NCBI GenBank assembly: GCA_964590395.1
Contig: CAZPVT010000005.1
Span: 116,387 to 180,386 of the forward strand
Reading direction: 5' to 3'
Length of the DNA stretch: 64,000 bases
Source of the DNA: an uncultured bacterium
Lineage (GTDB): Bacteria > Hydrothermota > Tepidihabitantia > Tepidihabitantales > Tepidihabitantaceae
Shown: positions 2,735-60,088 of the stretch, in pieces
How positions within the stretch are numbered: position 1 is the first letter of the stretch
Layout: every line of letters begins with the position of its first letter
The notes under the pieces: generated by a model
What the model saw: only the letters and a program-made list of their open reading frames with translations
Told to the model about the DNA's origin: nothing
The model's database searches: none
Program-made: the position numbers and the translations under genes

Positions 2735-2737
2735 GGC

Positions 2738-5713: not shown

Positions 5714-5716
5714 TTT

Positions 5717-6751: not shown

Positions 6752-6762
6752 AACTATCTCCC

Positions 6763-13049: not shown

Positions 13050-13139
13050 AGTAAAATACTATCTGTTTAATAGCCACAAGGCAAATTTGTGCCAGTAGGA
13101 AAAGATTAGGCTGGTCCGAAAGAAAAAAGCGGCGCGGTC

Positions 13140-14702: not shown

Positions 14703-14749
14703 GTTAGTCGTTGTTGACCGTCAAAAGTTTGGGCATAAACTTTTTTATT

Positions 14750-15310: not shown

Positions 15311-15326
15311 GTAATAAAAAGGAGGT

Positions 15327-15905: not shown

Positions 15906-15908
15906 TCC

Positions 15909-26023: not shown

Positions 26024-26183
26024 CCGAGCCGAGTGGCAGAATAAACACTCAAAAGGCAGTGATGGTAAAGTGATTATTGGCGACCGGAAGTAACATAGGG
26101 AGTTCTAGCCAATATTAGCGATAATTTATACATTTGACTTTTGGAAAAGTTGGGATAAATTAATGAAGGCAGTTCTCTATTTG

Positions 26184-42445: not shown

Positions 42446-44893
42446 ATGGCAAAGAAGCGAGCAGCACCCCGGGCAAAAACGCCGGCAGTAAAAAGACCGG
42501 AGCAGGTGATACCAGAGGAGAAACTGCACCGTTATGCGGTAGCCGGTTTTTTTGTTCTGCCCCTGATTTTTTGGGGTAGGTTACTGTTTGGGCCTGTGAT
42601 GACGTATGGGACCGATTTTCTCGGTGCTGGGGGGTATGCGGCGCGTCAATTTATGGCTGAGTACATCCGCAACCATTTAACCATTGCGCTATGGCAGCCC
42701 CAGATACTGTGTGGTCAACCGACGGTAGCGGCATTTTTTGGCGATCTTTTTTATCCAACGATATTTTTACGTCTCTTTTTGCCCGTTCATATCGTTTGGG
42801 CGTGGACATTCTATATTCATACGGTACTGGCCGGGCTCGGTACCTATCTTTTTATCAGGGAACTGAAAGTTTCGACACTTGCAGGCGTTGTGGCTGGTGT
42901 TGCCTATATGTTTTCCGGTTCGCTGATGACCCTTGCCTTTGCCGGCCACGATGGCCGGTTAATCGGTTCCGCTTTGATGCCCTGGACGGTTTTTCTTTTG
43001 ATCCGGGGGTTAAATCGGCGACAACTGTTCTGGTTTGTGCTTACAGGTTTAGTGCTCGGTCTACAACTTCTGTCCGGACATATCCAGAAGGTATATTATA
43101 CCGTCTTGATACTGGTCGCCTGGTTTATCTTTAACTGGGTTCGGATGCTCAGGCAGGAGAAGGAGATAAAATCATCAGCAGTTAAATTGATAGGTTACTT
43201 TGGGCTTAGCGGACTCTTTGCGATTGGTATCGCGGCAATTCAGTATCTACCGATTTACGCCAATCTGCCTTACAGTGCCCGGGGCGCAGAGCGGGGTTAT
43301 GAGTTTGCTACCTCCTGGTCGATGCCGATCGCTGAGATATTTGATCTATTAACGCCGAAGTTCTCTGGTGGACTGGAGAACTACTGGAGTAAGAATCCGT
43401 TCAAACTGCACAGCGAGTATTTAGGGATTCTGCCTCTGCTTTTTGCCTTCATTGCCTTAATCCGATGCCACAAGACCCCCATCGTTAGATTTTTCTCTTT
43501 CACGGTGCTTTTTGCTGTATTAATGGCCTGGGGTGGAAACACACCTTTTTATCGTCTGCCTTATTACCTGCTGCCCGGAATCAGCAAGTTTCGCGGTCCA
43601 GGGATGATATTCTTTGTTGCCGGTTTTGCGCTTGCGGTACTGGCAGGCTATGGGGTTAATTACTGTTTTGACCGTTCAAACACCGATGGGTTGAAGAAAA
43701 CATTGCGGGCGCTACTTTACGCCGGGGCCGGGCTTTTTCTGTTACTACTGTTCTTTCTTGTTGCCCGTGATGCAGCGAGCTCGATTTTTAATCCGGGCAC
43801 GCGTCTTGTCCAGTTTGAAGCCAACTATCCCTCATTGACCTCAGGAATGGTATTTGCGGTATTCCTCTGGCTGATTGGCATCGGCATCGTCTATCTACCG
43901 CGTGCCGGTGTTAGTCCACAACTTGTGGTGGTGACAACCGTGCTGATAATGACGCTTGATGTTGGTTTAGCATTGAAACTCTGGGACAATCAGCGTGGTT
44001 ATATCCGTTCGGTTCCGCCACCGCAGGAGTATTTTGCTCCGGATGAAGTGGTGCGTTTTTTAAGGCCGGATAGTTCCTTTTATCGGGTTCTACCCTTAAA
44101 TTATGAACGCTCGGATCAGGGAATATTGTGGTTACACGGTATCTATTCTACCGGTGGGCAGATACCGAATCCTTTGCAGAGTTATCAGGATTTCATCGGT
44201 GCGGGGAAAAGCGTGCTCTTTCAGGCAAACAATCTGCTAAATTCCAATTTTATGAATTTACTGAATGTGAAATATGTTATTACCTACAACCTGCCAAGCG
44301 ACATCTCCCGGTTTGACCCCCAGAGCCAGCAGGTGATCAATCAGTTACGACTCTACTTCAGTCAGCCCCAGTTTGAGCAGGTATTTGCCGGAACTTACTA
44401 CGCGGTGTATTACAACCGGCAGTTTCTACCTCGTGCCTTTATTGTCCATAATTACGAGGTCGTTAGAGATAAGGATGAACTTTTGTCCCGATTGATGCAA
44501 CCGGATTTTGATCCCAGCCAGACCGCACTACTTTACACTAAACCAGAGTTTGAACCCGGTATGCTGGTGGATACGGTTGCCCGGTGTTCGATTGTATATT
44601 ATGATGCCAATCGGATTAAACTGTCTGCCCGGCTGTTAGCACCCGGACTGTTGATTCTTAGTGAGAACTATCATCCGGACTGGCAGGTTAAGATCAATGG
44701 CAAAAGTGCGCAGCTGTTACCCGCATTTCACACCCTGCGGGCAGTTGTTCTGGAGGTGGGCGAACATCAGGTGGAGTTTACTTATTATCCTAAATACTAC
44801 CGGCTGGGTATGCTTTTGACCCTGCTTACCGCATTGGCGATCCCCCTTTTGTCATTGCGAGGCACAAAGTACCATGGCAATCTCACAGCGTAA
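42446..44893 (+). CDS. YfhO-family polytopic membrane protein (surface polymer glycosylation)
   Basis: 815 aa. Many N-terminal TM helices plus a C-terminal extracytoplasmic domain. Sits in a GT1 + flippase-like cluster. Confidence 0.65.
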   Translation: MAKKRAAPRAKTPAVKRPEQVIPEEKLHRYAVAGFFVLPLIFWGRLLFGPVMTYGTDFLGAGGYAARQFMAEYIRNHLTIALWQPQILCGQPTVAAFFGDLFYPTIFLRLFLPVHIVWAWTFYIHTVLAGLGTYLFIRELKVSTLAGVVAGVAYMFSGSLMTLAFAGHDGRLIGSALMPWTVFLLIRGLNRRQLFWFVLTGLVLGLQLLSGHIQKVYYTVLILVAWFIFNWVRMLRQEKEIKSSAVKLIGYFGLSGLFAIGIAAIQYLPIYANLPYSARGAERGYEFATSWSMPIAEIFDLLTPKFSGGLENYWSKNPFKLHSEYLGILPLLFAFIALIRCHKTPIVRFFSFTVLFAVLMAWGGNTPFYRLPYYLLPGISKFRGPGMIFFVAGFALAVLAGYGVNYCFDRSNTDGLKKTLRALLYAGAGLFLLLLFFLVARDAASSIFNPGTRLVQFEANYPSLTSGMVFAVFLWLIGIGIVYLPRAGVSPQLVVVTTVLIMTLDVGLALKLWDNQRGYIRSVPPPQEYFAPDEVVRFLRPDSSFYRVLPLNYERSDQGILWLHGIYSTGGQIPNPLQSYQDFIGAGKSVLFQANNLLNSNFMNLLNVKYVITYNLPSDISRFDPQSQQVINQLRLYFSQPQFEQVFAGTYYAVYYNRQFLPRAFIVHNYEVVRDKDELLSRLMQPDFDPSQTALLYTKPEFEPGMLVDTVARCSIVYYDANRIKLSARLLAPGLLILSENYHPDWQVKINGKSAQLLPAFHTLRAVVLEVGEHQVEFTYYPKYYRLGMLLTLLTALAIPLLSLRGTKYHGNLTA

Positions 44894-45215
44894 AACCCGG
44901 GCTACCCGCAAAGGGATTGCTTCCTGCCTGCGGCAGTTCGCAATGACGAAGGAAGGAATGTCATTGCGAGGACGCTCCATCCCCCTTGTTATTGCAAGGA
45001 GCGATAGTGATGAAGCAATCTCACGTAAAGGGATTCCTTCGCCCTTCGGGCTCGGAATGACGAAAAAGGATAGGCTCGGAATGAAGAAAAAAGAATAGAC
45101 TTGGAATGACAAAGAAACGACGGGTGCGAAATGACAGAAAGGGGGAGACTGTCATTGATAGGAGTGATAGCGACGAAGCAATCTATAAGCGGATAAGACA
45201 GGATACACGCAAAAG
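44851..45215. repeat. Structured intergenic repeat region, copy B of the dispersed family, with a degenerate ~24-nt tandem array
   Basis: GTCATTGCGAGG occurs twice. Hairpin CGCAATGAC-12nt-GTCATTGCG. Four tandem units ..GGAATGACgAAAaag.. at 45048-45145. 28-nt core identical to 13182-13209. Confidence 0.55.
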
Positions 45216-45242
45216 TAATTGCGCCGATTTCCGGGATACTGT

Positions 45243-45270
45243 TTGACAGCCGAGCCGATTTTGTTAAAAT
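45243..45270 (+). promoter_or_regulatory. Sigma-70-like promoter for the lipoprotein-receptor-T9SS-cargo operon
   Basis: TTGACA-16 nt-TAAAAT. Downstream GTG start with AAGGAGG. Confidence 0.45.
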
Positions 45271-45327
45271 TCCTAAAAGAAAATATGAAAATTGGGTTCA
45301 GGAAGAGCAAATAAAAGGAGGCAAGCT

Positions 45328-46335
45328 GTGCAGGTAATAATTAAAAGGTACCGACTGTTAGGAGTCGGCCTATTACTGGCAGTGGTGATGTTCACCGGCT
45401 GCGGTCGAATGCCGCCACAAGAAATCTGGCAGCCGAATGCGCAAGATTCCACCGCGCTCGATTCTATCGTTCTTGCCAACAAGGATTTGCTTACCGTGAA
45501 TTTCGCTGAGACGGAGATGCAGTATCTCGAATGGGTGGTTCCGGATACAATTCTCAAAAAGGCAATCAAGGATAATCCCTTCAAACAGCGCTATATCTGC
45601 GACTCAATGCAACGTATTTTTAATGACTCACTACGCAAATGGCATCACCGGTTTATTGCCACGGTTGACACCGGAGTAGGGGATACAACCGCAACAATTT
45701 TTGTCACAGAGACGATACCGGGCAGATTAATAATGCACGCCAGAAGGTATACAAGATATCTGCGCGATTCAATTATCATCACGCCATCCGATACCATCCG
45801 GTTACACTTCTACGATACCCTCTGGACCGACACCTCCCTGATTGTTGAGAAGCCAATTAACGCAATTGCTTATGACGGGTGTGTTTTACGCAAGGAACAG
45901 GGGGCCTGGCGGTTCTGGAAATTGGCTGGTGGCCAGCGGTTTTATGCACCAACCTTTGAGGATGCACCGTATTTAGTTAACGTCTATCTCACCAATGGAA
46001 CCCGAAGCGATACTTTTGCCTGGCGTCCTGACACCCTACATTTTGGCACCCAGCGGTTTTACGAATATCCGGACAGTCTATTAACATATCCAGAGAACGA
46101 CAGTTTGTGGATTACTTCTTTTTACAATCCCACCGGAACCGACTTTTTTAATTTCTTTATCTTCCAGGGGGTGCGGTACCGAGTCATCGCCACTAACCGA
46201 ATAAGATTGACTCAATCAGGTGTGCATCGGCTTTATGTGGAACAGGTGCCGTATGCGGTGTTTTATGATTCGGGCGGCGAGTTAACAGCTACTGTCTGGG
46301 GAATTCCTATTTATATTAAAGGAGGCGGACAATGA
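45328..46335 (+). CDS. Lipoprotein of unknown function
   Basis: GTG start at 45328 preceded by AAGGAGG (the ATG at 45292 lacks an RBS). Lipoprotein signal LLLAVVMFTGC. Stop overlaps the next start. Confidence 0.45.
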   Translation: MQVIIKRYRLLGVGLLLAVVMFTGCGRMPPQEIWQPNAQDSTALDSIVLANKDLLTVNFAETEMQYLEWVVPDTILKKAIKDNPFKQRYICDSMQRIFNDSLRKWHHRFIATVDTGVGDTTATIFVTETIPGRLIMHARRYTRYLRDSIIITPSDTIRLHFYDTLWTDTSLIVEKPINAIAYDGCVLRKEQGAWRFWKLAGGQRFYAPTFEDAPYLVNVYLTNGTRSDTFAWRPDTLHFGTQRFYEYPDSLLTYPENDSLWITSFYNPTGTDFFNFFIFQGVRYRVIATNRIRLTQSGVHRLYVEQVPYAVFYDSGGELTATVWGIPIYIKGGGQ

Positions 46336-49163
46336 GAAGGTGTGCATTTTTTATTATCGCTTTGCTTTTAATCGCGGGGAGCGCATTTGCGGGCGTTGTC
46401 GGTCGGATTAAAGGCAAGGTGATCGATAAGAAGACCAGAGAGCCCTTAGTTGGTGCCAATGTGATTGTGGTCGGCACCGAACTGGGTGCAGCGACCGATG
46501 CGAACGGTGAATATGAGATTAACAATGTCCCGCCGGGCAGGTATAAACTTACCGCTTCCTACATCAGTTATAACGAGATGAGCGTTACTGATGTGCTGGT
46601 AGTTCAGGACCAGGTGGCGATTATTGACTTTCAGTTAAGCCCGACAGTGATTGAGGTTGGTCCGGTTGAGGTGAAGGCAGAACGGCCATTGGTGAACCGG
46701 GGAACGGTGACGGTGGAGCGGGTGATCACTGATGAGGAGTTCAAGCGGTTGCCGGTTGTGCAACTGTCTGAACTGGTCGGTTTGCAGGCGGGCGTTACGC
46801 AAACCACGGGTCGGGGCTGGACCCACATCCGTGGCGGTAGATACGATGATGTCGCCTATCTGGTGGACGGTGTCGCGGCGCAGGATGCAGTGGTAGGAAC
46901 GCTGTGGTCAAGCCCGAAGCCCACGAGTGATGCGCTGGCATCGGTGGTGGTGGTGACCGGTGGTTTTGATGCGGAGTATGGCTCAGCGATGTCCGGTATT
47001 ATCAAGGCAGTGACCAAAGAGGGTGGTTCACGAACCAGCGGGAAGATCGGGTATCTGACTGATGAGGTTTTCCCGAAACCGGACCTGAATTTCGGTTATA
47101 ACCGGGTTACCTTTTCGCTGGGCGGACCCACATTCTATAACCGCCTGCGTTATTTTATCTCCACCGAATACTTCAAGACCGATGATGACCGAAACTGCCT
47201 GTATAAGGTTAATTCGCCCAGAGGTGAGTATGCGGCAGAAGGTAAATTGACACTTCAGTTTCCGAAGGAGTTTTTCCTGACCCGGGAGGGTTTGAAGTTA
47301 ACCGTCGACGGCTATCACTCCAATTACCAGTGGCAGGCATGGGCGAACAGTTACAAGTTTTATCAAAAGGCACTTTATGCCAATAGGGTACGTAGTTATA
47401 AAGGTAATGTGACGCTGAACCATATGCTTTCGCCGACCACGGTTTATGAGGCGAAGTTGGGCGTTTTCTCCACCTCGTTAATCAGGACGGTGCGGAATTT
47501 TGATGCTGAGGCAGCAGATACCACCGGATTCTGGGGTTTTCTGCGCAAGAACGGAATCTGGGACCGATATTTCTTCCGGGCTGAGGACTGGGTGTTTAAC
47601 AATCCGGAAGGGCTATCGAAGAAAGAGGCGGTTTTGCAGTTGTGGCGTTCTTACTGGCTATCCCCGAGCGGGGACACCGTTTATGCCCATAAGGCGCAGA
47701 AGAAGAATTTTATGACCGCGTATGCTTTGATCGATAATCCCTATGGTGTGGCTGGTCTGTTTGTTACCGAAGGTGATAACCGGACCTGGCATTACCGGCA
47801 AACCGATCATATGCTTTTCAAGTTTGATCTGACCAAGACCATCTCCAAGGTACACGAGATCAAGACTGGTGTTGATATCACTCAGTATTCGGTTTCAATG
47901 TATGACAACTCCCTACCATGGGACCAGAATCCGTTCTGGGATGCGTTTAATTATAAACCGCTGGTGGCTGCTGCTTATATCCAGGACCGGGCAGATTTTG
48001 AGGACCTGGTGGTGCGTGCTGGTGTTCGGTTTGATTATCTTGATGCAAAGGCAAAGGTGCGGGTTTTTCCTGAGTCGCTCGGTTCAACACCAGAAATTGC
48101 CGACAGTTTTATACCGGTGCCGCCAAAGTACCGTCTTTCACCTCGACTGGGTATCTCTTATCCGATTACTGAGCGGATTAAGTTCCGCTTTTCTTATGGC
48201 CATTTCTTCAAAAATCCGGTTTTTGCCAATCTGTATGAGTACGGTGAGCGACCAGCAGCCGAATTGCGGGGGCGGGGTAATGTCATTGTGGGTAATCCGG
48301 ATATGAGCGCGGAAAAGACCATCGCCTATGAGTTAGGGTTTGATGCCCAGTTAAGTGATGTATTTGCCTTTGACCTGACTGCATTTTACAAGGATGTGTT
48401 TGACCTTTCCGGTGTGCGTGTAGTTTCCGCACTGCCTCAGCCCTACACGATGTATTACAATGTCGAGTATGCCCGTATTCAGGGTTTTGAAGCAACGATG
48501 ACCAAGGCGCTTGCCAATTACTGGAATACCCAATTGGGTTACACCTTCCAGGTCGCGAAAGGCACCGCCTCCACTGCGACTGACCAGTATCAGCGGGAAA
48601 AACCACTGCAGATTGATTTCTATCTGGATCAAGATCAGCGCCATTCACTGCACGGCAGTTTAGGATTTTACTTTCCGTCGGACTTTGGATTTACTCCACT
48701 GCGCGACTTCAATGCCTCCGCGGTTGCCAATTATGGCTCTGGTATGCCCTACACACCGACCGACATTAGAGGTAACCGAACCGGTGCGGAAAATTCGGCA
48801 AGAATGCCTTCAAGTTTCACGATGGATATGCGGTTTGGCAAGGACATCAGACTGGGTGGTCTTAACCTAGTGCTTTCCTGCGATATTACCAACCTTCTGA
48901 ATGCCCGGGTGGCAACCAATGTTTATGCTACGACCGGTAAGCCGGATAATGATGGGCGGGTATTCACACCACAGGAGTTTGTGCCTGGTATCAGGTTCGG
49001 GGATCTGTATTACCATCCGGCACGGGATTTCAATCATGATGGTTATCTGACGCGGATGGAGATGTATCAGTCCTATATTCGGGCGCGCGAGGATTATGTG
49101 AAGGCACCGACCTATTACGGTTCGTCAAGGAAAGTTCGTTTTGGCATCAGCCTGTCTTTCTAA
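46332..49163 (+). CDS. TonB-dependent-receptor-type outer-membrane protein with an N-terminal CarbopepD_reg domain
   Basis: Signal peptide. GVVGRIKGKVIDKKTREPLVGANV..GEYEINNVPPGRYKL. Plug. Large beta-barrel ending in F. Confidence 0.7.
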   Translation: MRRCAFFIIALLLIAGSAFAGVVGRIKGKVIDKKTREPLVGANVIVVGTELGAATDANGEYEINNVPPGRYKLTASYISYNEMSVTDVLVVQDQVAIIDFQLSPTVIEVGPVEVKAERPLVNRGTVTVERVITDEEFKRLPVVQLSELVGLQAGVTQTTGRGWTHIRGGRYDDVAYLVDGVAAQDAVVGTLWSSPKPTSDALASVVVVTGGFDAEYGSAMSGIIKAVTKEGGSRTSGKIGYLTDEVFPKPDLNFGYNRVTFSLGGPTFYNRLRYFISTEYFKTDDDRNCLYKVNSPRGEYAAEGKLTLQFPKEFFLTREGLKLTVDGYHSNYQWQAWANSYKFYQKALYANRVRSYKGNVTLNHMLSPTTVYEAKLGVFSTSLIRTVRNFDAEAADTTGFWGFLRKNGIWDRYFFRAEDWVFNNPEGLSKKEAVLQLWRSYWLSPSGDTVYAHKAQKKNFMTAYALIDNPYGVAGLFVTEGDNRTWHYRQTDHMLFKFDLTKTISKVHEIKTGVDITQYSVSMYDNSLPWDQNPFWDAFNYKPLVAAAYIQDRADFEDLVVRAGVRFDYLDAKAKVRVFPESLGSTPEIADSFIPVPPKYRLSPRLGISYPITERIKFRFSYGHFFKNPVFANLYEYGERPAAELRGRGNVIVGNPDMSAEKTIAYELGFDAQLSDVFAFDLTAFYKDVFDLSGVRVVSALPQPYTMYYNVEYARIQGFEATMTKALANYWNTQLGYTFQVAKGTASTATDQYQREKPLQIDFYLDQDQRHSLHGSLGFYFPSDFGFTPLRDFNASAVANYGSGMPYTPTDIRGNRTGAENSARMPSSFTMDMRFGKDIRLGGLNLVLSCDITNLLNARVATNVYATTGKPDNDGRVFTPQEFVPGIRFGDLYYHPARDFNHDGYLTRMEMYQSYIRAREDYVKAPTYYGSSRKVRFGISLSF

Positions 49164-49176
49164 GGGGGAGGATAAG

Positions 49177-52122
49177 GTGAATAGAGCGCTTAAAATTTCT
49201 TTAGTTATCATTATTCTACTGGCGGTCTTTGCGCCAGTGTTTGCCAAAACCGCCACGCCCGTTTCCCGGGGAAAGCGGATTTATGATATGAAGTGGCTGA
49301 ATATCAACCGCTGGAAATGTCCGTTTTACAACGATGGCAGATACGGGATTGATGTTACGGTTGGCACTGGTCAGGCAGGAGGCAGCTGGCCCCAGCCTTT
49401 GCATAACTGCTATATCTTTGGTGCGGGGATGTGGTTTGGCTCGTTGAAGCCGCGTGAGGATGGTAAGACCGATACTCTGGTCTCTTTCGGATACAACCCG
49501 AATTCCGGTGGCACCGAGATGACGCCGACGACAGTTGCCCGCGCACCAGAAGGTGCGGGAAGTTCGGATGACCGGATTTTTGTTTATCCTAATGACTGGC
49601 CACCAAGCCCCAGGGACCGCTGGACTACCGGAAATTCTAAGATCGACAGCATGCTGATTCCTTATGAGGCTTTCTCTTTACAGGATATGTGGTGTGTCTA
49701 TTCGGATGCGGCACCGGAAAATCATATCGCACCAGGCAAACCGCAGAATATTGATGTTTACCAGGTGATTTACGCCTGGAACTATCCATCGAATCAGGAT
49801 ATCTTCTTTATCATCTATAATGTGCGCAATTCTGGGGACGATACCCTGAAGCGATGCTTTATCGGCGCGGTGAATGATCCGGATATCGGCAATGCCCCAG
49901 ATGATATGGTCGGGTTTATTCTCAAAGACTACATTCCGGGTGCCGATACAGTGGAAAATGTTGGGTATGCGGGTGATGTTGATAATCAGGAAACCCCAGG
50001 AAGCACCTGGGAGTCAGGAACACCGGGCGTTTTCGCATATAAGTTTCTGGACAGTCCGAAACGGGATTCAATCACTGCGAGCGGTGATACAGTGAAGGTG
50101 CCATTGGGGATGACCGCATTTAAAAAGTTCACAATTGACATTGACCCGGTTACTGACCCGGCTCAGTATCTGACGATGGCTGGTTATGATTATCGAACTG
50201 GTGTTTATTCGGCTTATGATTCGGTTGATGTAACTGCTGCGGATAAACGTTTTATTATGTGCTCAGGACCATTTGATCTTGCCCCGGGGCAGGTTGAGCG
50301 GTTGGTAGTAGCAGCAATCGGTGCACCATTTGGTGGGCCAAATCAACCATGGGCAGACCGGCCAAAGGACTCGTTAGTTCATCTGGCGCGGGTCGCCAAT
50401 GCCGCGCAATTTATCTATAACCAGGGATGGCTCCTACCAGGACCACCGGTTGCACCGAATATAATACTTTTGCCAGGAGATAAACAGGTGCGGCTCGTCT
50501 GGGATGACCTGCCGCAAAGGACGCCAGACCGTTACTGGGAAAAGGTAGCGAGTCAGCCTGGTCCAGGATATGACCCGATGTATCGTGGTTATGACTTTCA
50601 GGGGTATGTTATCTATAAATCACGCGACGGTGCCAACTGGAAGATCATCGGTCAGTGTGATCTGGCTGACACTCTGCCCAAGTCAGGAACCGACACCCTC
50701 TGGCCATACAAAGTGGAGATATCCGAGAACAAACGGGATACAACTTACCTCTGGCCACTGGGTAGAGATGAGACCCAGCCGGACAGTCTCTGGGTCAGGA
50801 TGAATAATCGCGGGGTATACTATACACTGCTCGATAAAGATGTGATCAACGGTTTCACCTATTACTACTGTGTGACCGCGTACGACTGGAACTATATCAC
50901 TAAAACGAAGGACAGTCTCGGTAATCCGGTCACCTGGGATACTTTGATTCTGCGTTCGGGTATTGTTGCTAACTTCTTAACAACACCGAGATGGGAGCCG
51001 GTGAATTACATCTGGCCTGAGGTACGGGTTGTGCGGGTGGCGGGTGATTCGTTAAACAGTGCGTTAATCTGTTCCACAACGGTGACGGTACCTTTTAATG
51101 TTACGGGTGATGTTTATGAGATCAGGTTTTTAGGACCCGAGTGGAGTGGTTCTTTTGAAAAACCGATCTACTCCTACTATGCGGTGAACACCACTAAAAA
51201 TGAGTCACTGGTGATTGATACTACCTCCTTTACCTACGAGATCGCATCACCGGCAAAGAAGTTGAGTTTTGATCTACCGATAATTAACGGCATCGCGACC
51301 AAGATGGTGCTGGGTATGAAGATTCCGGATGTACCGTTTACCGCGGTAAGCGTGGAACAGGGTAATTATCCGGCTGATTCCTTAAAGATTGGCGTGGCAC
51401 CGCGTCAGGCTTACTGGGCATTCCGGGGTTCGGATTACCGGATTGAGTGGCAGAACCGGAATGGCTATCTCACGGCCAGGGTTTACGATGTTACTAACGG
51501 CGGAATTGAAGTGCCATTCTCCAAGTTTACCAGTGCAGGAACTGGGCCACAGAATGCGAATGGCTGGTGCTTTGTGGACAGAGGTTTGCGCTCGCCCACC
51601 GATACCTTAAAAGGCACAATCGCTCACATTTACATCTGCGGCGGTTATTTAGGTTTCAAACAGTCCGGGGACAGTTTGCAGAGCTTAATCAACTCAATTC
51701 AGGACGGCAATGTCTGGTTGCTCACCGGTTACCGGTCAGGTGGTGCGGCACCATCCTATAATATCCTGAGACTGGTGCCGACCGTGGGATATGCGGATAC
51801 CAGTACCAAGCAGAAGTTGCAGGTTAAGGTGGTGCCTAATCCTTACATCGTGTTTAACCCGTGGGAAAAGACAACTGAGGAGCGGAAGGTCAAGTTCACC
51901 CATCTGCCGAATCGTTGCAAGATCCGGATCTTCACTACTTCTGGAGACCTGGTTAAGGTAATTGAGCATAACGATTCCAAGCGACAGCCAATGGATCTGG
52001 GTGGCACTGCGGACTGGGATCTGGTTAACGATTATCAACAGTTGATCGCGTCCGGAGTTTATATCTTCCATGTGGAATCACCGGTTGGTGAGTTCACTGG
52101 GAAGTTGATGGTCATCCATTAA
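49177..52122 (+). CDS. Large secreted protein with a T9SS C-terminal sorting domain (cargo of unknown function)
   Basis: GTG start with a GGGGGAGG RBS. Signal peptide. The C-terminal ~90 aa (VVPNPYIVFNP...KIRIFTTSGDLV...ASGVYIFHV..GKLMVIH) match the Por-secretion CTD pattern. Confidence 0.6.
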   Translation: MNRALKISLVIIILLAVFAPVFAKTATPVSRGKRIYDMKWLNINRWKCPFYNDGRYGIDVTVGTGQAGGSWPQPLHNCYIFGAGMWFGSLKPREDGKTDTLVSFGYNPNSGGTEMTPTTVARAPEGAGSSDDRIFVYPNDWPPSPRDRWTTGNSKIDSMLIPYEAFSLQDMWCVYSDAAPENHIAPGKPQNIDVYQVIYAWNYPSNQDIFFIIYNVRNSGDDTLKRCFIGAVNDPDIGNAPDDMVGFILKDYIPGADTVENVGYAGDVDNQETPGSTWESGTPGVFAYKFLDSPKRDSITASGDTVKVPLGMTAFKKFTIDIDPVTDPAQYLTMAGYDYRTGVYSAYDSVDVTAADKRFIMCSGPFDLAPGQVERLVVAAIGAPFGGPNQPWADRPKDSLVHLARVANAAQFIYNQGWLLPGPPVAPNIILLPGDKQVRLVWDDLPQRTPDRYWEKVASQPGPGYDPMYRGYDFQGYVIYKSRDGANWKIIGQCDLADTLPKSGTDTLWPYKVEISENKRDTTYLWPLGRDETQPDSLWVRMNNRGVYYTLLDKDVINGFTYYYCVTAYDWNYITKTKDSLGNPVTWDTLILRSGIVANFLTTPRWEPVNYIWPEVRVVRVAGDSLNSALICSTTVTVPFNVTGDVYEIRFLGPEWSGSFEKPIYSYYAVNTTKNESLVIDTTSFTYEIASPAKKLSFDLPIINGIATKMVLGMKIPDVPFTAVSVEQGNYPADSLKIGVAPRQAYWAFRGSDYRIEWQNRNGYLTARVYDVTNGGIEVPFSKFTSAGTGPQNANGWCFVDRGLRSPTDTLKGTIAHIYICGGYLGFKQSGDSLQSLINSIQDGNVWLLTGYRSGGAAPSYNILRLVPTVGYADTSTKQKLQVKVVPNPYIVFNPWEKTTEERKVKFTHLPNRCKIRIFTTSGDLVKVIEHNDSKRQPMDLGGTADWDLVNDYQQLIASGVYIFHVESPVGEFTGKLMVIH

Positions 52123-52133
52123 AGGAGGCAAGA

Positions 52134-53171
52134 ATGAAAATAGCGTTGAAAATCTTATTGCTCGGTTTGGTGGTTTGTTCCTTTTCCTATGGTGCGTTCA
52201 GCAAGGTGGCGACAACCGGGGCGAATTTTCTGAAAATCGGCGTGGGCAGGGCGTCAGGAATGGGCGATGCGTTTACCGCGCTGGCTGATGATGCCTCGGC
52301 TGCCTATTTTAACCCGGCAGGTCTGGCGAATGTCAATCGGCAGGCACAGGTCAATCATGCGAAATGGTTTGCGGATATCAACCACGACTTCATGGTGGTT
52401 GTGTTACCGGTAACCAATTTCGGCACGGTCGCATTTACTGCTACTGCGCTGACGATGGGTGACATTGAGGTAACAACGGTTGATGACCCGAAGACGCCGG
52501 CGCGCGAGGATGAGGGAACCGGGCTGAAGATCGGTGCTAATGATCTGGCATTCGGTATCAGTTACGCCCGGATTATCACGGACAAGTTGTCATTCGGGCT
52601 TTCGGTCAAGGCGGTTCAACAGACCATCTGGGATATGGGGGCTTCTGCAGTGGGTTTTGATATGGGGCTTTTCTACAACACCGGGTTCAAGTCGCTAAGG
52701 CTGGGCGCTGCTGTCACCAACTACGGAACTCAACTGGCTTTTTCCGGGCCGCATCTGGATTACAACTTTAACTGGTCCGATTCCGGACCGAAGCAACTGC
52801 AGGGCTCTTACAAAACCACACCCTCACCACTACCGACCGCATTCCGTTTCGGGGTGGCGATGGATTTGGTGAACACCGGCGCCAATCGGCTTACCACCGC
52901 AGTTGACATTGTGCATCCTTCAGACATCAATGAGACGGTCAATATCGGCCTGGAATACGGTTTAGCCAATATGTTCTTTTTGCGCGGGGGCTATATCCTG
53001 AATGTTGACCAGAACTACCACCAGAAACTCGGCGATCTCACCGGACTCTGTGCCGGACTGGGCATAAAAGGCAAACCGACTCCTGTGCTGGAGATAGGGC
53101 TTGATTATGCGTTCCGGTATTATCAATACTTGAAACCCACACACCGGTTGATGTTGACCGTTGGCTTTTAA
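52134..53171 (+). CDS. PorV/PorQ-family (FadL-like) outer-membrane beta-barrel protein
   Basis: Signal peptide, then GANFLKIGVGRASGMGDAFTALADDASAAYFNPAGLA, the hallmark N-terminal motif of PorV/FadL-like barrels. Ends in aromatic GF. Flanked by two CTD-bearing genes. Confidence 0.55.
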   Translation: MKIALKILLLGLVVCSFSYGAFSKVATTGANFLKIGVGRASGMGDAFTALADDASAAYFNPAGLANVNRQAQVNHAKWFADINHDFMVVVLPVTNFGTVAFTATALTMGDIEVTTVDDPKTPAREDEGTGLKIGANDLAFGISYARIITDKLSFGLSVKAVQQTIWDMGASAVGFDMGLFYNTGFKSLRLGAAVTNYGTQLAFSGPHLDYNFNWSDSGPKQLQGSYKTTPSPLPTAFRFGVAMDLVNTGANRLTTAVDIVHPSDINETVNIGLEYGLANMFFLRGGYILNVDQNYHQKLGDLTGLCAGLGIKGKPTPVLEIGLDYAFRYYQYLKPTHRLMLTVGF

Positions 53172-55335
53172 GGACAAGGGGTTCGCTCTTAGAGCGGTTA
53201 AACTGACAGGGGGATGGTTAACCATCCCCCTGTTGCTATTATCTGCCAGGGCTATAGGTGCTAAATGGACTGTGGGTATTTACATCGGCGCGGATAACGG
53301 AATGAGCGAACAGGCTTATGTTGACATTGCGGAGATGATGAAAGTTGGCTCAAGTAGCGAGGTCAATATCGTGGTGCAGGTTGATAATGCCAGCCGGGAC
53401 ACCAATCCGAACTGCCGGCGTTATTTAATCCTTAAAGATCAGCGGGAACTGCTTGCAGACCTTGGTGAACTGGATATGGCAGACACCGCGGTGCTTGCGG
53501 ATTTCATTGCGTTTCTGGGTAGAAATTTTCCTGCCCGTAACTACTTTCTTATCATCTGGGACCACGGCAACGGCTGGCGTGCAGGTTATGGTCCACAGCG
53601 GGCGGTGGTGATTGATGAGTCCCATAGTCATATGATGGGGGTGGCAGGTGGCGAGTTAAACCGGGCACTGGCAAACGGAGTTAAACGGCTGGGCAAGAAA
53701 CTGAAGATTTTAGGTTTTGATGCCTGTTTGATGGGGTGCATTGAGGTGGCAACTGAGGTGATGGACTACTGTGAATACCTCCTTGCCTCGGAGGCGATGG
53801 TGGAGTGGAATGGGTTACCCTATGATGCCATATTCAGAAGGTTAACCACCCAGCCTGACATACCGGTTGAACAGTTACTTTCCGGTATCTGTGAGGACTA
53901 TGTTAACGCATATCCGGACCGGGCGGTCTGTCTTTCGGCGATCAGCACCGCACAACTGAAACAGGTGATAAAAACCCTCTCTGTTGTGCTTAAAGACAGT
54001 ATTGGTTCAGATGATAGACGTGTTCAAACTGCCCGTCTTGGTGTGCAGACATTTCCGCAGGATCTGGTTAGCCAGCCCAAAGTCAACGATGAGATGATCG
54101 ATCTTATTCATTTCTGGCAGCTGGTAGGGGGTAATGGCACCGAGAAACTCTGTCAGGCTCTTGAAGGGTTGGTTGTGGCAAATGCGGTGGGGGGGGCGGA
54201 TTTTAACAATGCGCAGGGTCTTGCGGTCTGGTTTCCTTTTCGGTACCTTGGTTTCAAATCCAAGGCAAAGGAGTATCAGCAACTGGTTTTCTCAGACAGT
54301 GTGCCCTGGCTTAGTTTCTTAAACAACTATTTCGGTTTAGACGATGCCAAACCTGAAACACCCCGGATTATCAAACACCAGACCGGAAACCGGGGAGATG
54401 TCCGGCTCTGGTGGCACCGGGTTAAGGACTGGTCACCGGTTACCTACCATCTTTATCAGGCGACCGCGCCCGCATCGATTTTACAGGACCACTGCGACAG
54501 TTTTGCCTCTTGGCAGTCACAGGGCTGGGCCGTTTCAACCCGGTATAGCCGTTCACCCGGGAGTTCGTTTTTCTCGGGTTCAGCGAGCAACTTAACTCAC
54601 CTCCTGACACTAAAATCCGGAGTATCACTGCCTGCAGGTGGTTTGCTTGCCTTTTATGCCTATTACTCAACCCAGGAGACCGAAGACTCCTTGGGTAACA
54701 TTACCCGTGATGCCTGCTATATTGAAACCTCAACTGATCGCCAAAACTGGCAGATACTGGACTCAATTTACGGTTCTGGTGAATCCTGGCAGGAGTTTTC
54801 CTATCTTCTGGTTCCAGCCGAGAATGTTTATATCCGGTTCAGATACACCACCGACCAGACCATAAACCGGCTCGGTGTTTTTATTGACGACATCCGGATT
54901 GAACGGTTTTTGACCCTGCGCAAGGCGCTGGTTACCACCGACACCACATCCTACCTCTTCAACCTTGCCCGGGAGACCACCGGTTATTACTTTTTCCTTA
55001 TGGCGCAGGATGCATCTGGCAACTACTCCAATCTCAGCTCCTATTACCCGGTAAAGATCAAAACCCTTGCCGAACCCTACACCCGACCCGCGCCATTTTC
55101 CGGGCAATGTCAACTTATCCTGGACTTTCCGGCAGGTGAAACTCCGGATGTCTACATCTACACATTGAGCGGCGCCCTGGTCAAAAAATTCTCAAAGGTC
55201 ACTAACCGGATGATTGACTGGGACGGCAAAAACGAATATGGTAGAGACCTGGCTGATGGGGTCTATTTAGTTTTAGTCCGGGGTAAAAACTTCAAAAAAA
55301 TCGGCAAAATCGCCCGGGTGGGGGTAAAAGGATAA
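53161..55335 (+). CDS. Clostripain-family (C11) cysteine peptidase with a T9SS C-terminal sorting domain
   Basis: IYIGADNG..., IIWDHGNGW (His) and GFDACLMG (Cys) catalytic-dyad motifs. C-terminal CTD (DVYIYTLSGALV...DGVYLVLV...KIGKIARV). Confidence 0.7.
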   Translation: MAFKDKGFALRAVKLTGGWLTIPLLLLSARAIGAKWTVGIYIGADNGMSEQAYVDIAEMMKVGSSSEVNIVVQVDNASRDTNPNCRRYLILKDQRELLADLGELDMADTAVLADFIAFLGRNFPARNYFLIIWDHGNGWRAGYGPQRAVVIDESHSHMMGVAGGELNRALANGVKRLGKKLKILGFDACLMGCIEVATEVMDYCEYLLASEAMVEWNGLPYDAIFRRLTTQPDIPVEQLLSGICEDYVNAYPDRAVCLSAISTAQLKQVIKTLSVVLKDSIGSDDRRVQTARLGVQTFPQDLVSQPKVNDEMIDLIHFWQLVGGNGTEKLCQALEGLVVANAVGGADFNNAQGLAVWFPFRYLGFKSKAKEYQQLVFSDSVPWLSFLNNYFGLDDAKPETPRIIKHQTGNRGDVRLWWHRVKDWSPVTYHLYQATAPASILQDHCDSFASWQSQGWAVSTRYSRSPGSSFFSGSASNLTHLLTLKSGVSLPAGGLLAFYAYYSTQETEDSLGNITRDACYIETSTDRQNWQILDSIYGSGESWQEFSYLLVPAENVYIRFRYTTDQTINRLGVFIDDIRIERFLTLRKALVTTDTTSYLFNLARETTGYYFFLMAQDASGNYSNLSSYYPVKIKTLAEPYTRPAPFSGQCQLILDFPAGETPDVYIYTLSGALVKKFSKVTNRMIDWDGKNEYGRDLADGVYLVLVRGKNFKKIGKIARVGVKG

Positions 55336-55406: not shown

Positions 55407-56672
55407 CTATGCTTCTGCCGCACATAAAAATTGAATTACATCGGCTAGATATTCAACTTTATTTTTCCCGGGCGGTAATAACCTGTTTTCAAATATATAA
55501 ATATATTTGTCAAGCAAGTAATTTACAATTGTAGTGAGTTCAACTTCTCCGCACTCCGAATTTATTACGGAATCGTACATTAGTCTTAAACTTTTATCTT
55601 CTTTCAATAAGCCTAAAAAACTTATGGTGAAATTCTTTTTATATTTAAGTAACATACTCCTTTCGTCAATAGTTATTAGTTGAGATAACCAAATATCATC
55701 GTATTTCAATAAAAGCAAATCGGATACTGAAAAACTTTTCCTAAAAAGCTTTAATGTAATATCGTTACCGTATAACGCTCCTACTCTTACTATTAATTTA
55801 GAATAAGACAAACCGATCTCCATTTGTAAGTTCTCGGTGTCTTTACTAATTATTTTCATTGTTGGACTTTGTTCTATTATATTTTGTAGGTATTCAAAGC
55901 CTTCCCGGCTTGAAGAGTAAAATCCGTTGGTTTTATCGCCTTGAATTGTCGCGGGATTGTCACCTGTATCAAACAAAACACCGATATATATTTCAAAGTT
56001 TTTAATTCCAAACTTCTCAAGTAATTCTGTTAGAGAAAATTCCTCATGGTTTCTTCTGAATAATTTTATATTGGAGTTAAAATACTCTACGAAAATTCCA
56101 AATTTTTCCGATGTCCAGATTTCTCGTCTGCCAGCAGCCCCGCCGGTATCTACTCTATTTTTAAGTTCAACTAATACAATCGTTTTTTCGTCTTGTATAA
56201 TACTTCCTACATCAGTGGTTACATCCTTGTTACCTAACCAATCCCATTCAATCGTCCTTAAGATTTTCTTTTCTGTGGAGGACAACCCTTGCTGAGTAAA
56301 AATACCCTTCTTCTTGTGGATAGATGGGTATGTTAACCAAAATGGAAGTTTGCTAAGTTCTATATCCAGAGAACAATTTTCAAAGGAGGAGGCTATTTTC
56401 TTTTCAATATACCTTCCACGACCACCCTGACTGTGATGATAATAAGATGTAACACCTAGTAAAGCTTCGTAATATTCTTTGATTTCAGGTGGAGCACTTA
56501 ATAGTCCATCGTAAACTTTGGCTACCGGATCAAAATCCTTTGCATTAATATTCATACAAAGCTCTTTGAAATTTATTAATATGTTTTTATAAGGTTCATA
56601 AAGTAATATTTGTCCAAGATCTAATTTCCCTTTTTCTTTTATACACAGAAGGTTTTTCTTTTTAATAATCAC
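55407..56672 (-). CDS. Hypothetical protein (candidate restriction endonuclease partner of the upstream methyltransferase)
   Basis: 421-aa ORF in ~33% GC DNA. Its start lies 1 nt after the MTase stop. Possible PD-(D/E)xK-like IIQDEK..LVELK segment (weak). Confidence 0.4.
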   Translation of the reverse strand: MIIKKKNLLCIKEKGKLDLGQILLYEPYKNILINFKELCMNINAKDFDPVAKVYDGLLSAPPEIKEYYEALLGVTSYYHHSQGGRGRYIEKKIASSFENCSLDIELSKLPFWLTYPSIHKKKGIFTQQGLSSTEKKILRTIEWDWLGNKDVTTDVGSIIQDEKTIVLVELKNRVDTGGAAGRREIWTSEKFGIFVEYFNSNIKLFRRNHEEFSLTELLEKFGIKNFEIYIGVLFDTGDNPATIQGDKTNGFYSSSREGFEYLQNIIEQSPTMKIISKDTENLQMEIGLSYSKLIVRVGALYGNDITLKLFRKSFSVSDLLLLKYDDIWLSQLITIDERSMLLKYKKNFTISFLGLLKEDKSLRLMYDSVINSECGEVELTTIVNYLLDKYIYIFENRLLPPGKNKVEYLADVIQFLCAAEA

Positions 56673-56673
56673 A

Positions 56674-58005
56674 TTATTTCACTTTCTCGCAAATTATTAT
56701 ACTTTCTCCTCTGATTGCTCTATTCCGAGCACCTAATAGGGGATTAAATATCAATCTTTCAAATTTAAATCCCACTTCTTCACAAAACCTTTTAGTTGTC
56801 AAGGTAGTGGGAATTTTTTTCCCATTTACGGTACTGTCTCCAATTATAATAGCCAGCTTGCCGCCAGGCTTTAATGCCCAGAAGATATTTTTTATTAATT
56901 CTTTCAAGTCTTCATAATACATCGCTACTTTTGGAGGCAGTCCTTTATAAGATATTTCTGATTTCCCATTTTTCATACCCAGATATCTTGACTCGATTTT
57001 TTTCATATCTATGCCCAAATAGTCATAAGCAATTTTGTCTTTCCCAACATAATCTATAGAAAAATAGTAAGGCGGACTTGTAATGCAGGCGTCAAATTTC
57101 CCATCGAACTCCCTCATTTTCTTGAGTTCAAGGACATCGCCTTCAATGATTTTGGCAGGTTTAAAGTTAAGGCGATATTTTTCTTTTATTTCTATCGTTT
57201 TTTTTGAACATTGTTTTATATAGTTTAATTTTTCAATAAAGAGCCCCAATTTTCCTTTTCTATTATACCTTGAAGTTCTCATAAAGGCATCGACTGTATC
57301 AAAATATACTGCGAGCATTAATTTTTGAATTAATGGATCGGGGCATCCCCAGTTTTTATTTTCTATGGCTTGTAAGATATCTTGGAGTTCTTGTTGAGTA
57401 AAATTCAACTTTTGTTCATCGATAAAAAGCAAATCGTTTTTTAATTCTGATAGAACAATTCCCATCGGGGTAACATCTATGCCAGTACTTTTGATTCCCA
57501 TAAGGGAGGCTTCGTGTGTAGTCGTTCCTGAGCCGTTAAAGGGGTCTAAAAGGAGAGAATCGCTGTTTAATTTAAAGGTATTAATTAAAGTCCTAACTAC
57601 TCGTGGATAGAATTTGCCTTTATATGGATATAGATTATGAAACGCATAGGCATTCGTGTCACCAAATTTATCAACAAAATCTGTGTAAAGAGTTTTTTCC
57701 CCTTTTACTATTTCTAGGTGCGCTACTCTTAACCTTATAAATTCTTCATCGCCCTTAAATCTAACCGTTCGGTTTATTGGGTCAATTTTATATTCTTCAG
57801 TTAACCCACGCAGTTCTAAATCCAAAAGTTCCAGATCTGCAAGGGTTTGCATCCAGAAGCCAAATATTGTGTCACCTTTTTGGGCGACATAGTTTGCAAA
57901 TTCTTGGGAGTAAGCCTCGATTATCTCTTGATAAGACGGAAATTCGTAGGTACCAAACATCGTCATTTGTTTTCCCTGTTTTAATGCTCGAACGTCTTTA
58001 CTCAT
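56674..58005 (-). CDS. DNA amino-methyltransferase (N6-adenine or N4-cytosine), type II R-M-like
   Basis: Motif I LLDPFNGSGTT, then, after a TRD-sized gap, motif IV ITSPPYY. AT-rich. Confidence 0.75.
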   Translation of the reverse strand: MSKDVRALKQGKQMTMFGTYEFPSYQEIIEAYSQEFANYVAQKGDTIFGFWMQTLADLELLDLELRGLTEEYKIDPINRTVRFKGDEEFIRLRVAHLEIVKGEKTLYTDFVDKFGDTNAYAFHNLYPYKGKFYPRVVRTLINTFKLNSDSLLLDPFNGSGTTTHEASLMGIKSTGIDVTPMGIVLSELKNDLLFIDEQKLNFTQQELQDILQAIENKNWGCPDPLIQKLMLAVYFDTVDAFMRTSRYNRKGKLGLFIEKLNYIKQCSKKTIEIKEKYRLNFKPAKIIEGDVLELKKMREFDGKFDACITSPPYYFSIDYVGKDKIAYDYLGIDMKKIESRYLGMKNGKSEISYKGLPPKVAMYYEDLKELIKNIFWALKPGGKLAIIIGDSTVNGKKIPTTLTTKRFCEEVGFKFERLIFNPLLGARNRAIRGESIIICEKVK

Positions 58006-58094
58006 TTATAAACTTTCCCCGATTGAGCATATATAGATTAATTTGAGATAAACAGTTGATTCGACGAGAGAGTAAGATCAATAACATTATCTAA

Positions 58095-58215
58095 AATTTA
58101 TAGTTGCACCCCTCCAAGTCAACTTTTTACCGGCGAGTGTTGCGGTTCCGGCACTGCCAGGCGCCGGTATCGGGGATAGGTTTTTTGAAACAGACCAGAG
58201 GGCAATTTGGGCATA
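58095..58215. repeat. Copy 2 of a triplicated palindrome + promoter-like element
   Basis: CCTCCAAGTCAA...CCGGCActgccaggcGCCGG-TATCGGGGATAGGTTTTTTGAAA. Shares the 5' part and core with 62995-63125. ~90 nt upstream of the MTase start. Confidence 0.6.
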
Positions 58216-58734
58216 TGAACTGGCAATGATATTTTCCACATCATTAGTCCCGCTTAGTCCTTTTTTCTCTCTGCTCTTTTATACCATTAATTATCCAGAT
58301 GGTTAGAGCGATAATTATGCAAATAATTACGAAAGCCACAACCAGATAGTAAACTGTAAGTGTTATTAATGGCAGTGTCGCTTAAACTAATATTGCCACC
58401 GGCAGAAGAATAAGTATCGCTAATACTTTAGCAACCAAACGAACTTGATGCTTGTTTCGAAACTTCCATAGTCCAATGGCAGTAAAAATACTAATGATAG
58501 CAATACTTAATAGGCTAATTAACATCCAGGCCTTTATACCTTCGCCATATATAAGCGAGATAAACAGGAGATATAGTGGTATTATTGTCTCCAGTATTAA
58601 AAGCCTAATTATATTACGAATTGATGCCAGCTCTTTCTTAATATTATATACCGCCTTTTATGCTATTTCCGATAACGTCTTGCGGATAAAAGAATTTGCC
58701 GAAGGTAATGTTGGGCGAAGCCTCTTATCCGCTG

Positions 58735-59664: not shown

Positions 59665-59780
59665 ATTACCTCCTTGTTTTAGAGCGATTTTTTATCTTTT
59701 GTGTGCGGTCAAGGTCCAATAAGGACATCGATAAAATTCATAACAATAACAATAAATCTGTCGAGGTCAAGTTTTTTCTT

Positions 59781-59885
59781 GCAGTTTGTTTTCATCCGGC
59801 AGTGTTAGGTGCCGGTAGCGGGGATAGGTCTTTTCAAATAGTTGGAGAATAGTCCGGGCAAGTTCTGGGTAGGGGACAGGTAAGG
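59781..59885. repeat. Copy 3 of the triplicated element
   Basis: CCGGCAgtgttaggTGCCGG-TAGCGGGGATAGGTCTTTTCAAATAGTTGGAGAATAGTCCGGGCAAGTTC. Shares the core and 3' part with 63040-63110. Confidence 0.6.
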
Positions 59886-60088
59886 GACGGTTTTAAATTC
59901 CAAGGATTATCTGCAGGGGTTCTGTTTTACGCTTTCTTTTTTAAACCTGTGAGAGTTAAATTCTTTTGTTTAAAGGTGTCCAAGAGGTCACCTCGACAGG
60001 TTATCTATATCTATTTTCCCCTCATATTTGCCGGCAAGGATTCAAAAGAAATTTCGTCAATGATGTTTGAGGATAAGTTCGGACATAA

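Follow-up and report, generated by a model that had tools for sequence, protein, structure and literature searches.

A five-gene locus of candidate division WOR-3 combining a TonB-dependent transporter, a PorV-like barrel and a family-specific C-terminal domain

What function is served, in a bacterium outside the Bacteroidota, by five adjacent genes that encode a lipoprotein, a TonB-dependent transporter (TBDT), a large protein of 981 amino acids (aa), a PorV-like barrel and a C11 peptidase? These genes (genes 1 to 5) are located on contig CAZPVT010000005.1 of assembly GCA_964590395.1, of which a stretch of 64,000 nucleotides (nt), referred to here as the window, was analysed. An earlier note had described them as a compact cargo locus of the system for type IX secretion (T9SS), serving surface proteolysis or nutrient capture. 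Such a role is still the most likely one, and the T9SS-type C-terminal domains (CTDs), the barrel, the intact C11 peptidase and the TBDT are all present. The description as a cargo locus was not supported, since the module is fixed throughout the phylum and conserved at a housekeeping level, and its core triad of TBDT, large protein and barrel persists outside candidate division WOR-3. The reading that we prefer, with slightly less than even confidence, is a nutrient-capture complex centred on the TBDT, in which the surface partner would be docked by its CTD in a dedicated PorV-like barrel and the C11 peptidase would be an added protease.

Conservation of the gene order within and beyond WOR-3

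All named homologues of gene 3 originated from candidate division WOR-3, and so did all 45 loci recovered from GTDB species representatives. The NCBI name of this lineage is now phylum Caldifarciminota; it is placed outside the FCB group there, in line with the earlier impression that the host is not a member of the Bacteroidota. A tblastn survey showed the order lipoprotein, TBDT, 981-aa protein, PorV-like barrel and C11 peptidase in essentially every WOR-3 locus long enough to be judged. About 35 WOR-3 species genomes had this fixed order between variable flanks, and clustering of the open reading frames (ORFs) of the WOR-3 loci yielded only these five families as common to 36 to 46 loci, the best flanking family reaching 13.

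The mean per-column identities to the window proteins were, in descending order, 0.70 (TBDT), 0.66 (barrel), 0.60 (981-aa protein), 0.50 (C11 peptidase) and 0.41 (lipoprotein). Across WOR-3 the TBDT was 49 to 90% identical, which made it the most conserved of the five proteins; the barrel was 50 to 84% and the C11 peptidase 36 to 64% identical. As a yardstick, the window was compared with the metagenome-assembled genome JBBISL01, using ribonucleotide reductase as the reference. For this one genome pair the identities were 85% for the TBDT, 77% for the barrel, 76% for the 981-aa protein, 60% for the C11 peptidase, 58% for the lipoprotein and 76% for ribonucleotide reductase. As a rule, nutrient receptors and secreted cargo evolve comparatively fast. 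As proteins of the module are as conserved as ribonucleotide reductase, constrained protein-protein contacts or a central function are suggested, and the level of conservation fits proteins in mutual contact.

An exhaustive profile search yielded 1178 cluster representatives of the gene 3 family at E≤1e-30, with members present in Ignavibacteria and Latescibacterota. Three of the four distant members inspected were preceded by a TBDT with CarboxypepD_reg and Plug domains and followed by a PorV-like barrel, and in these triads all three proteins were homologous to their window counterparts (25 to 40% identity). The fourth, a dockerin-bearing form from Latescibacterota, was solitary. A metagenome scan with distant relatives gave 79 loci. 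The core triad was present on one strand in 42 of them, and in 32 of the 36 that could be judged on both sides. A C11 gene downstream of the triad was found in 8 of the 79 loci and a homologue of the lipoprotein upstream in 12. The loci without the triad contained solitary copies or tandem arrays of paralogues.

In one distant lineage (L054, positions 12598-17607, and 3' of the porV-like gene in L060 and L062) the triad was followed by a 328-aa protein without assignment, another complete TBDT and a PEGA/beta-propeller protein. A GWxTD-domain protein follows the triad in L058.

The large protein, its C-terminal domain and the adjoining barrel

Fold prediction of the product of gene 3, which the earlier note had proposed, gave a signal peptide, a beta-supersandwich (about aa 38-420), an FN3-like domain (about aa 429-600), beta-sandwiches (about aa 615-870) and the CTD. 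The terminal all-beta domain of the AlphaFold2 (AF2) model comprises residues 905-979, and the family-specific CTD runs from VVPNPY (aa 885, nt 51829) to the C-terminus. According to the structure comparison, the supersandwich is a fold often tied to carbohydrate binding, as in the N-terminal domains of glycoside hydrolases (GH) and in aldose epimerases. The protein had been described as a 993-aa CTD protein without catalytic motifs. No known catalytic domain was detected in sequence or structure model, so this part of the description stood; its length was corrected to 981 aa, because public gene calls on identical metagenome contigs start at GTG 49177. PorZ was rejected as an identity of gene 3: the PorZ model NF052228 gave 23.3 bits (cut-off 260) with the CTD alone aligned, the protein is not a beta-propeller, and the Foldseek comparison with 5m11 gave a probability of 0.44 and a template modelling (TM) score of 0.10. 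PorU (NF033707) was rejected for both gene 3 and gene 5, the match being limited to the CTD end of the model.

T9SS-type CTDs on both proteins, as claimed before, were supported by profile comparison. The tails of gene 3 and of the C11 peptidase were mutually homologous (hhalign 98%, E 2e-13), and profiles built from them retrieved the C-terminal domains of further WOR-3 proteins, several of which exceed the cut-off of TIGR04183 with 24 to 36 bits. A direct comparison with TIGR04183, also suggested earlier, gave a divided result: the C11 tail matched with 19.3 bits (cut-off 23), the gene 3 tail did not match, and thus neither reached the cut-off. The gene 3 tail matched only the CTDs of PorZ (23.3 bits) and PorU (14.1 bits). 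Its consensus VVPNPY...FT-N/H-LP..C.IRI-F/Y-T..GDL...I.H...W-D-L...ASG.Y is the best conserved part of the superfamily. With a hidden Markov model (HMM) of this CTD, the median score was 88 bits among family members; no other CTD protein exceeded 28 bits, and those proteins scored higher on the C11-type CTD model. By these sequence criteria the gene 3 CTD is a distinct, private subtype. It is nearer to type A than to type B.

The product of gene 4 was assigned to the PorV/PorQ family, the match to NF033709 being 197.3 bits (cut-off 90; residues 27-345 on profile positions 1-326) and that to Pfam PorV (PF19572) 28.9 bits (cut-off 27). The signature KIGVGRASGMGDAFTALADDASAAYFNPAGL, from which a PorV/FadL-like barrel between two CTD genes had been deduced, is present. 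All equivalog cut-offs were missed: PorV NF033710 gave 69.8 (cut-off 250), PorQ NF033711 74.7 (cut-off 220) and PorV2 NF052325 85.4 (cut-off 325). From these scores gene 4 encodes a member of the PorV/PorQ family and not an orthologue of any named component. The sole sequence match in the PDB was PorV of Flavobacterium johnsoniae (6h3i_F, E 8e-6). BamG/BamF was tried as an identity and discarded; the NCBIfam model BamG NF053685, whose description leaves unclear which group's subunit is meant, gave 14.3 bits (cut-off 250), which is at chance level.

The presence of the family-specific CTD was then compared with the presence of a barrel gene in family members with at least 1.1 kb of downstream sequence. 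If the CTD was present, a PorV-like gene lay directly downstream in 49 of 57 cases; if it was absent, this was found in 0 of 19 (Fisher p 6e-12, uncorrected for shared ancestry). Such a pairing of a private CTD with a barrel would be expected if the CTD remained docked in a barrel of its own, and gene 4 appears to encode a barrel dedicated to the 981-aa protein and not a general shuttle. The large protein could also not be upheld as mere cargo, as it belongs to a large family whose carriers of the family CTD almost always lie beside an orthologous TBDT and PorV-like barrel. Paralogous pairs of the same kind occur in WOR-3: in L035 (68-4012) a 953-aa paralogue of the large protein is followed by a second PorV-family barrel, and in L006 (2164-4328) a small CTD protein is followed by another one.

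Seven metagenome loci (L061, L063, L065, L066, L076, L098 and L100) contained two to three large-protein paralogues in tandem, beside which neither a TBDT nor a PorV-like gene was found; the family-specific CTD was missing from most of these copies.

Remaining genes, layout and surroundings of the locus

The product of gene 2 consists of a signal peptide, a CarboxypepD_reg domain (aa 26-112), a Plug domain (aa 130-220) and a barrel of the 22-strand type. The Pfam scores were 32.0 for Plug (cut-off 23.9), 94.4 for TonB_dep_Rec_b-barrel (cut-off 27) and 68 for CarboxypepD_reg (cut-off 32.3); with the HMMs for plug and 22-strand barrel both above cut-off, the protein was classified as a TBDT. No equivalog or subfamily cut-off of NCBIfam was reached, and the SusC/RagA model TIGR04056 gave only 68.8 bits (cut-off 368) with the N-terminus alone aligned. 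In the search for a TonB box, a conserved g-V-x-V-x-A strand motif was seen between CarboxypepD_reg and Plug; tonB and exbBD were not located. The signal peptide of the gene 1 lipoprotein ends in the lipobox FTG-C, and a G-C-G-R motif is retained in at least 90% of 33 orthologues. The fold family of this mostly beta protein could not be assigned. It had no SusD/RagB match and stands upstream of the TBDT, so genes 1 and 2 do not form a SusC-SusD pair.

A second receptor-lipoprotein pair, reported earlier at 15909-18913, does exist in the window. It consists of a TBDT-like protein with CarboxypepD_reg and Plug domains (742 aa, 31% identical to gene 2 across the N-terminal ~235 aa), followed by a DUF4249 protein of 258 aa. 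No PorV-like or CTD gene adjoins this pair.

The identification of gene 5 as a C11 peptidase was substantiated: Peptidase_C11 (PF03415) matched with 131.6 bits (cut-off 25.8), and C11 relatives were found in the PDB with E down to 6.5e-12. The catalytic residues are His135 (nt 53563) in WDHG and Cys189 (nt 53725) in FDACLMG. Both motifs are kept in all 34 sequences aligned, and the dyad is thus intact. The middle region has a weak MAM-like match, and the near-threshold type A CTD comprises aa 640-722 (nt 55078-55326). Orthology to clostripain was rejected (TIGR02806, 53.9 versus 550).

Five co-directional, closely spaced ORFs had been reported and were all present (Table 1), with intergenic distances of -4, +13, +11 and -11 nt. 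In the public gene calls on identical metagenome contigs gene 1 starts at an internal Met. GTG 45328 is likely to be the true start: AAGGAGG precedes it by 6 nt, and the resulting lipoprotein signal peptide ends in FTG-C. The consensus-like promoter claimed ahead of the locus was the top-scoring promoter match of the region and sits in a 400-bp gap 5' of gene 1. Promoter-like sites showed no surplus across the region overall. A comparable site (at least 10/12) precedes gene 1 in 21 of the 33 orthologous loci, versus 5% of control segments, and the site in the window probably functions as a promoter.

Table 1. Positions of the genes and signals of the locus in the window
Feature	Position (nt)	Strand	Remarks
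Sigma-70-like promoter candidate	45243-45270	+	TTGACA-16-TG-n-TAAAAT; 11/12 consensus match
Gene 1, lipoprotein	ORF 45292-46335; likely coding 45328-46335	+	335 aa
Gene 2, TBDT	46332-49163	+	943 aa
Gene 3, large CTD protein	ORF 49141-52122; likely coding 49177-52122	+	981 aa
Gene 4, PorV/PorQ-family barrel	52134-53171	+	345 aa
Gene 5, C11 peptidase	53161-55335	+	724 aa
Perfect 14-bp GC-rich hairpin	53204-53235	+	32 nt 3' of the stop of the porV-like gene, within the signal-peptide codons of gene 5

In all 38 WOR-3 loci examined (the window and loci among L005-L048), a perfect GC-rich hairpin of 10 to 16 bp lies 16 to 36 nt 3' of the stop codon of the porV-like gene. The sequences of the arms vary among lineages with complementarity kept, and compensatory changes are present. 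In AT-rich lineages the hairpin is intergenic and is followed by a T-run and then by the C11 start codon; in the window and its relatives it overlaps the C11 signal-peptide codons. Among distant loci a hairpin behind the porV-like gene occurred in 18 of 54, versus 10 of 280 random segments. The simplest reading is that the hairpin is a terminator or attenuator closing an ancestral unit, behind which the C11 gene was added with lower expression. The C11 gene would be an add-on because it sits behind a hairpin that is conserved and because most distant versions lack it; being transcribed through or after the hairpin, it is probably expressed at a lower level.

Core T9SS genes (SprA/Sov and PorK/L/M/N, i.e. 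GldKLMN) were absent from about 82 kb (the window and ~18 kb of flanks), which represents a few per cent of the genome. The WOR-3 proteins whose CTDs pass TIGR04183 include a subtilisin-like protein and a C25 peptidase. A conserved WOR-3 protein of about 1240 aa, encoded outside the window (L029, 419-4132), contains Propeptide_C25, Peptidase_C25 (189 bits) and a CTD; its homologues (P0146-P0188) were 49 to 65% identical among ~45 matches. It scored 76.8 on the PorU model (cut-off 420), PorU-like yet far below the cut-off, and no T9SS genes were found in its gene neighbourhoods. This protein is a candidate for a PorU-type sortase or a gingipain-like protease, and with it the idea that the C11 peptidase is the only possible sortase was weakened. 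A "decayed CTD gene" at 24.7 kb, which the earlier note had counted among the T9SS features, could not be verified: ORF 24726-26180 had no NCBIfam match, and the best CTD-HMM match nearby (25820-26020) had an E of 0.63. The translation of this ORF is rich in Gly and Asp.

The 400-bp gap 5' of gene 1 (44850-45240) is crowded with short direct and inverted repeats (TGTCATTGCGAGG four times, GGCTCGGAATGA two to three times). In the closest relatives (L005, L006 and L046, at 500-5800) about 5.5 kb occupy its position, encoding a small CTD protein, a second PorV-family barrel (123.7 bits) and, on the opposite strand, a short paralogue (461 aa) of the 981-aa protein whose CTD passes TIGR04183. The gap in the window may be a deletion scar. 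Directly 3' of the C11 gene, genes on the - strand form a low-GC island (55407-61579; 34-37% versus ~49% elsewhere) with an N6/N4 DNA methyltransferase-like protein, a 421-aa protein without assignment, a DUF7663 protein and an AAA_14 ATPase. From its gene content the island looks like an inserted restriction-modification or defence island, and sequences flanking the module at this position vary among relatives. A further cluster on the - strand (2738-8034) encodes a 991-aa YVTN/NHL beta-propeller protein, a protein with zinc ribbon, PEGA and CarboxypepD_reg domains and a Ser/Thr kinase that has PASTA domains and, at its C-terminus, another zinc ribbon; the zinc-ribbon segments of these two proteins resemble each other.

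Readings of the locus and comparison with known systems

In the proposed nutrient-capture complex the 981-aa protein would be exported via its Sec signal peptide and displayed at the surface through a CTD that is a private variant of the T9SS type, staying docked in the gene 4 barrel in the manner of PorZ-PorQ and PorU-PorV of Porphyromonas. Its supersandwich, FN3 and beta-sandwich domains would bind a macromolecular substrate beside or over the transporter, and gene 2 would take in the product, possibly peptides or glycopeptides, with TonB energy. The lipoprotein, co-translated with the transporter, and the C11 endopeptidase with its type A-like CTD would be extras of WOR-3. The latter would cleave protein substrates at the surface and would probably be expressed at a lower level behind the hairpin. 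A single WOR-3 strain has been cultured; its growth is confined to yeast extract, and it has few ABC (ATP-binding cassette) transporters (PMC12285271). These properties are compatible with a capture complex and provide no evidence for it.

Several observations weigh against this proposal. Most of the distant triads are without C11 and many without the lipoprotein. The very high conservation is unusual for a nutrient TBDT, and the proteins could instead have a role in envelope biogenesis or secretion. Inward transport through the TBDT is an assumption. The fold of the 981-aa protein, as modelled, suggests carbohydrate binding, yet the sole enzyme of the locus is a peptidase. The lipoprotein, moreover, is not SusD-like, gave a poor structure model and is without the acidic surface-export motif.

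If the locus were a plain T9SS cargo locus, gene 4 would be a general PorV shuttle, and the 981-aa protein and the C11 peptidase would be ordinary cargo beside an unrelated receptor pair. CTDs of the type A kind together with a PorV-family barrel above cut-off agree with this, as does the public annotation of some relatives as proteins with a T9SS type A sorting domain. The subtilisin-like and C25 proteins of WOR-3 with CTDs passing TIGR04183 also favour it, since some general pathway for CTD proteins, with an equally general shuttle, must then exist somewhere. However, cargo sets are normally variable, while here the gene order is fixed throughout the phylum between variable flanks, and the triad with orthologous TBDT and barrel survives in distant lineages. 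The 981-aa CTD is also a private subtype co-occurring with the adjacent barrel, and the additional PorV-family barrels beside other WOR-3 CTD proteins favour dedicated barrels over a single shuttle. We therefore consider a plain cargo locus unlikely. It is also quite unlikely that the locus encodes a sorting and attachment machine resembling PorU-PorV-PorZ-PorQ, in which the 981-aa protein would deliver glycan or lipopolysaccharide (LPS) like PorZ, the barrel would be the anchor like PorQ and the C11 peptidase would be the CTD-cleaving sortase. In NCBIfam both tails match the CTDs of PorZ and PorU best, the barrel scores almost alike with PorQ (74.7 bits) and PorV (69.8 bits), and the C11 dyad is intact, C11 and C25 both belonging to clan CD. 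In addition, the 981-aa fold is of a common carbohydrate-binding type, the window has glycosyltransferase, LPG_synthase_TM and YfhO genes just upstream, porU and porV are adjacent in Bacteroidota, and the conservation is at a housekeeping level. Nevertheless, the 981-aa protein is not a beta-propeller, and its match to PorZ and PorU is confined to the CTD. WOR-3 has its own ~1240-aa C25 protein with a CTD that could be the sortase, most distant triads are without any peptidase, the upstream glycan genes are not conserved neighbours, and the TBDT, the most conserved member, would be left without a role.

An export or assembly function of the TBDT-like barrel, which would move or insert the 981-aa protein across the outer membrane with TonB energy before the PorV-like barrel receives its CTD, appears improbable. 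Such a role would agree with the strict order of TBDT, large protein and barrel across phyla, with the unusual conservation of the whole TBDT, and, by analogy, with Oar, a TBDT needed for protein secretion (PMC6434023). The lack of core T9SS genes in ~82 kb of this genome is weak evidence in the same direction, because only a few per cent of the genome were covered. On the other hand, plug and barrel have the features of an ordinary importer, and passage of a folded 981-aa protein through a 22-strand barrel would be mechanistically hard. Other WOR-3 CTD proteins do not lie beside TBDTs, and the T9SS-type CTDs and the PorU-like C25 protein suggest a conventional T9SS. Equally improbable is that the triad is a self-contained display system without a T9SS translocon, in which the TBDT-type barrel would energise export or assembly and the PorV-like barrel would capture the private CTD.

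The preferred reading, capture of nutrients by a TBDT with a CTD-docked partner, has its closest counterparts in the Bacteroidota. PorU and PorZ keep their CTDs and are held at the surface of Porphyromonas gingivalis by the 14-strand barrels PorV and PorQ (PMC7463736). As in these pairs, a CTD surface protein is encoded beside a PorV-family barrel, and the tails best match the CTDs of PorZ and PorU. Unlike PorZ with its beta-propellers and PorU with its C25 domain, the partner in the window consists of a supersandwich, FN3 and beta-sandwich domains. The pair in the window also shares an operon with a TBDT, and the triad occurs in WOR-3, Ignavibacteria and other uncultured lineages and not in Bacteroidota; the retention of the CTD is putative here. 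In Flavobacterium johnsoniae, genes for cargo with type B CTDs are linked to cognate PorP/SprF barrel genes (PMC12618676). Similarly, the private CTD subtype of the large protein predicts the adjoining barrel gene, but the barrel in the window is of the PorV/PorQ family, the CTD is nearer to type A, and a TBDT belongs to the unit. FadL-like BamG and BamF barrels hold surface subunits beside BamA in the BAM complex of Bacteroidota (PMC12578637; 10.1101/2025.02.17.638638). By analogy, a 14-strand FadL/PorV-related barrel may be the fixed anchor of surface proteins by a larger barrel in the window, although no BamA is encoded at the locus and the BamG model scored at chance level.

SusCD and RagAB utilisomes of the Bacteroidota operate with surface enzymes, and RagAB and gingipains serve peptide uptake. 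A TBDT with an N-terminal CarboxypepD_reg-like domain is likewise encoded together with putative surface binding and degrading proteins at the locus, and, in analogy to RagAB and gingipains, a clan CD cysteine peptidase with a CTD would supply peptides. In contrast to those systems, the locus has no SusD/RagB-like helical lipoprotein, its TBDT stays below the cut-off of TIGR04056, the partner would be anchored by the CTD-barrel pair and not by lipid, and the peptidase is C11 and not C25. Oar of Myxococcus xanthus also has an N-terminal CarboxypepD_reg domain. This TBDT is required for secretion of the PopC protease (PMC6434023). The likeness lies in a TBDT functionally tied to a secreted protease; Oar-PopC, unlike the triad, involves no PorV-like barrel or CTD.

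The individual domains are already known, and in automated annotation the label "T9SS type A sorting domain-containing protein" is attached to some relatives. The literature found on PorV-like and TonB-dependent proteins gave no account of the triad, and nothing linking WOR-3 with T9SS or any secretion system was found in the literature searched. The triad, the private CTD tied to the adjacent barrel and the conservation throughout WOR-3 therefore appear to be undescribed. To our knowledge, PorV-family barrels and T9SS-type CTDs have been studied almost only in Bacteroidota, where PorV is regarded as a general shuttle. If the triad were a self-contained display system, CTD/PorV sorting would be older and more modular than the T9SS of Bacteroidota, and the TBDT would be a protein exporter in several uncultured phyla. 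If the triad proteins form one complex, this would be a second mode, besides lipidation, of mounting substrate-binding partners on TBDTs, and CTD-barrel docking would be a general construction principle outside the classical T9SS. The triad is a concrete target in sy37, the sole cultured WOR-3 strain and a yeast-extract grower, and offers a handle on how poorly known phyla feed.

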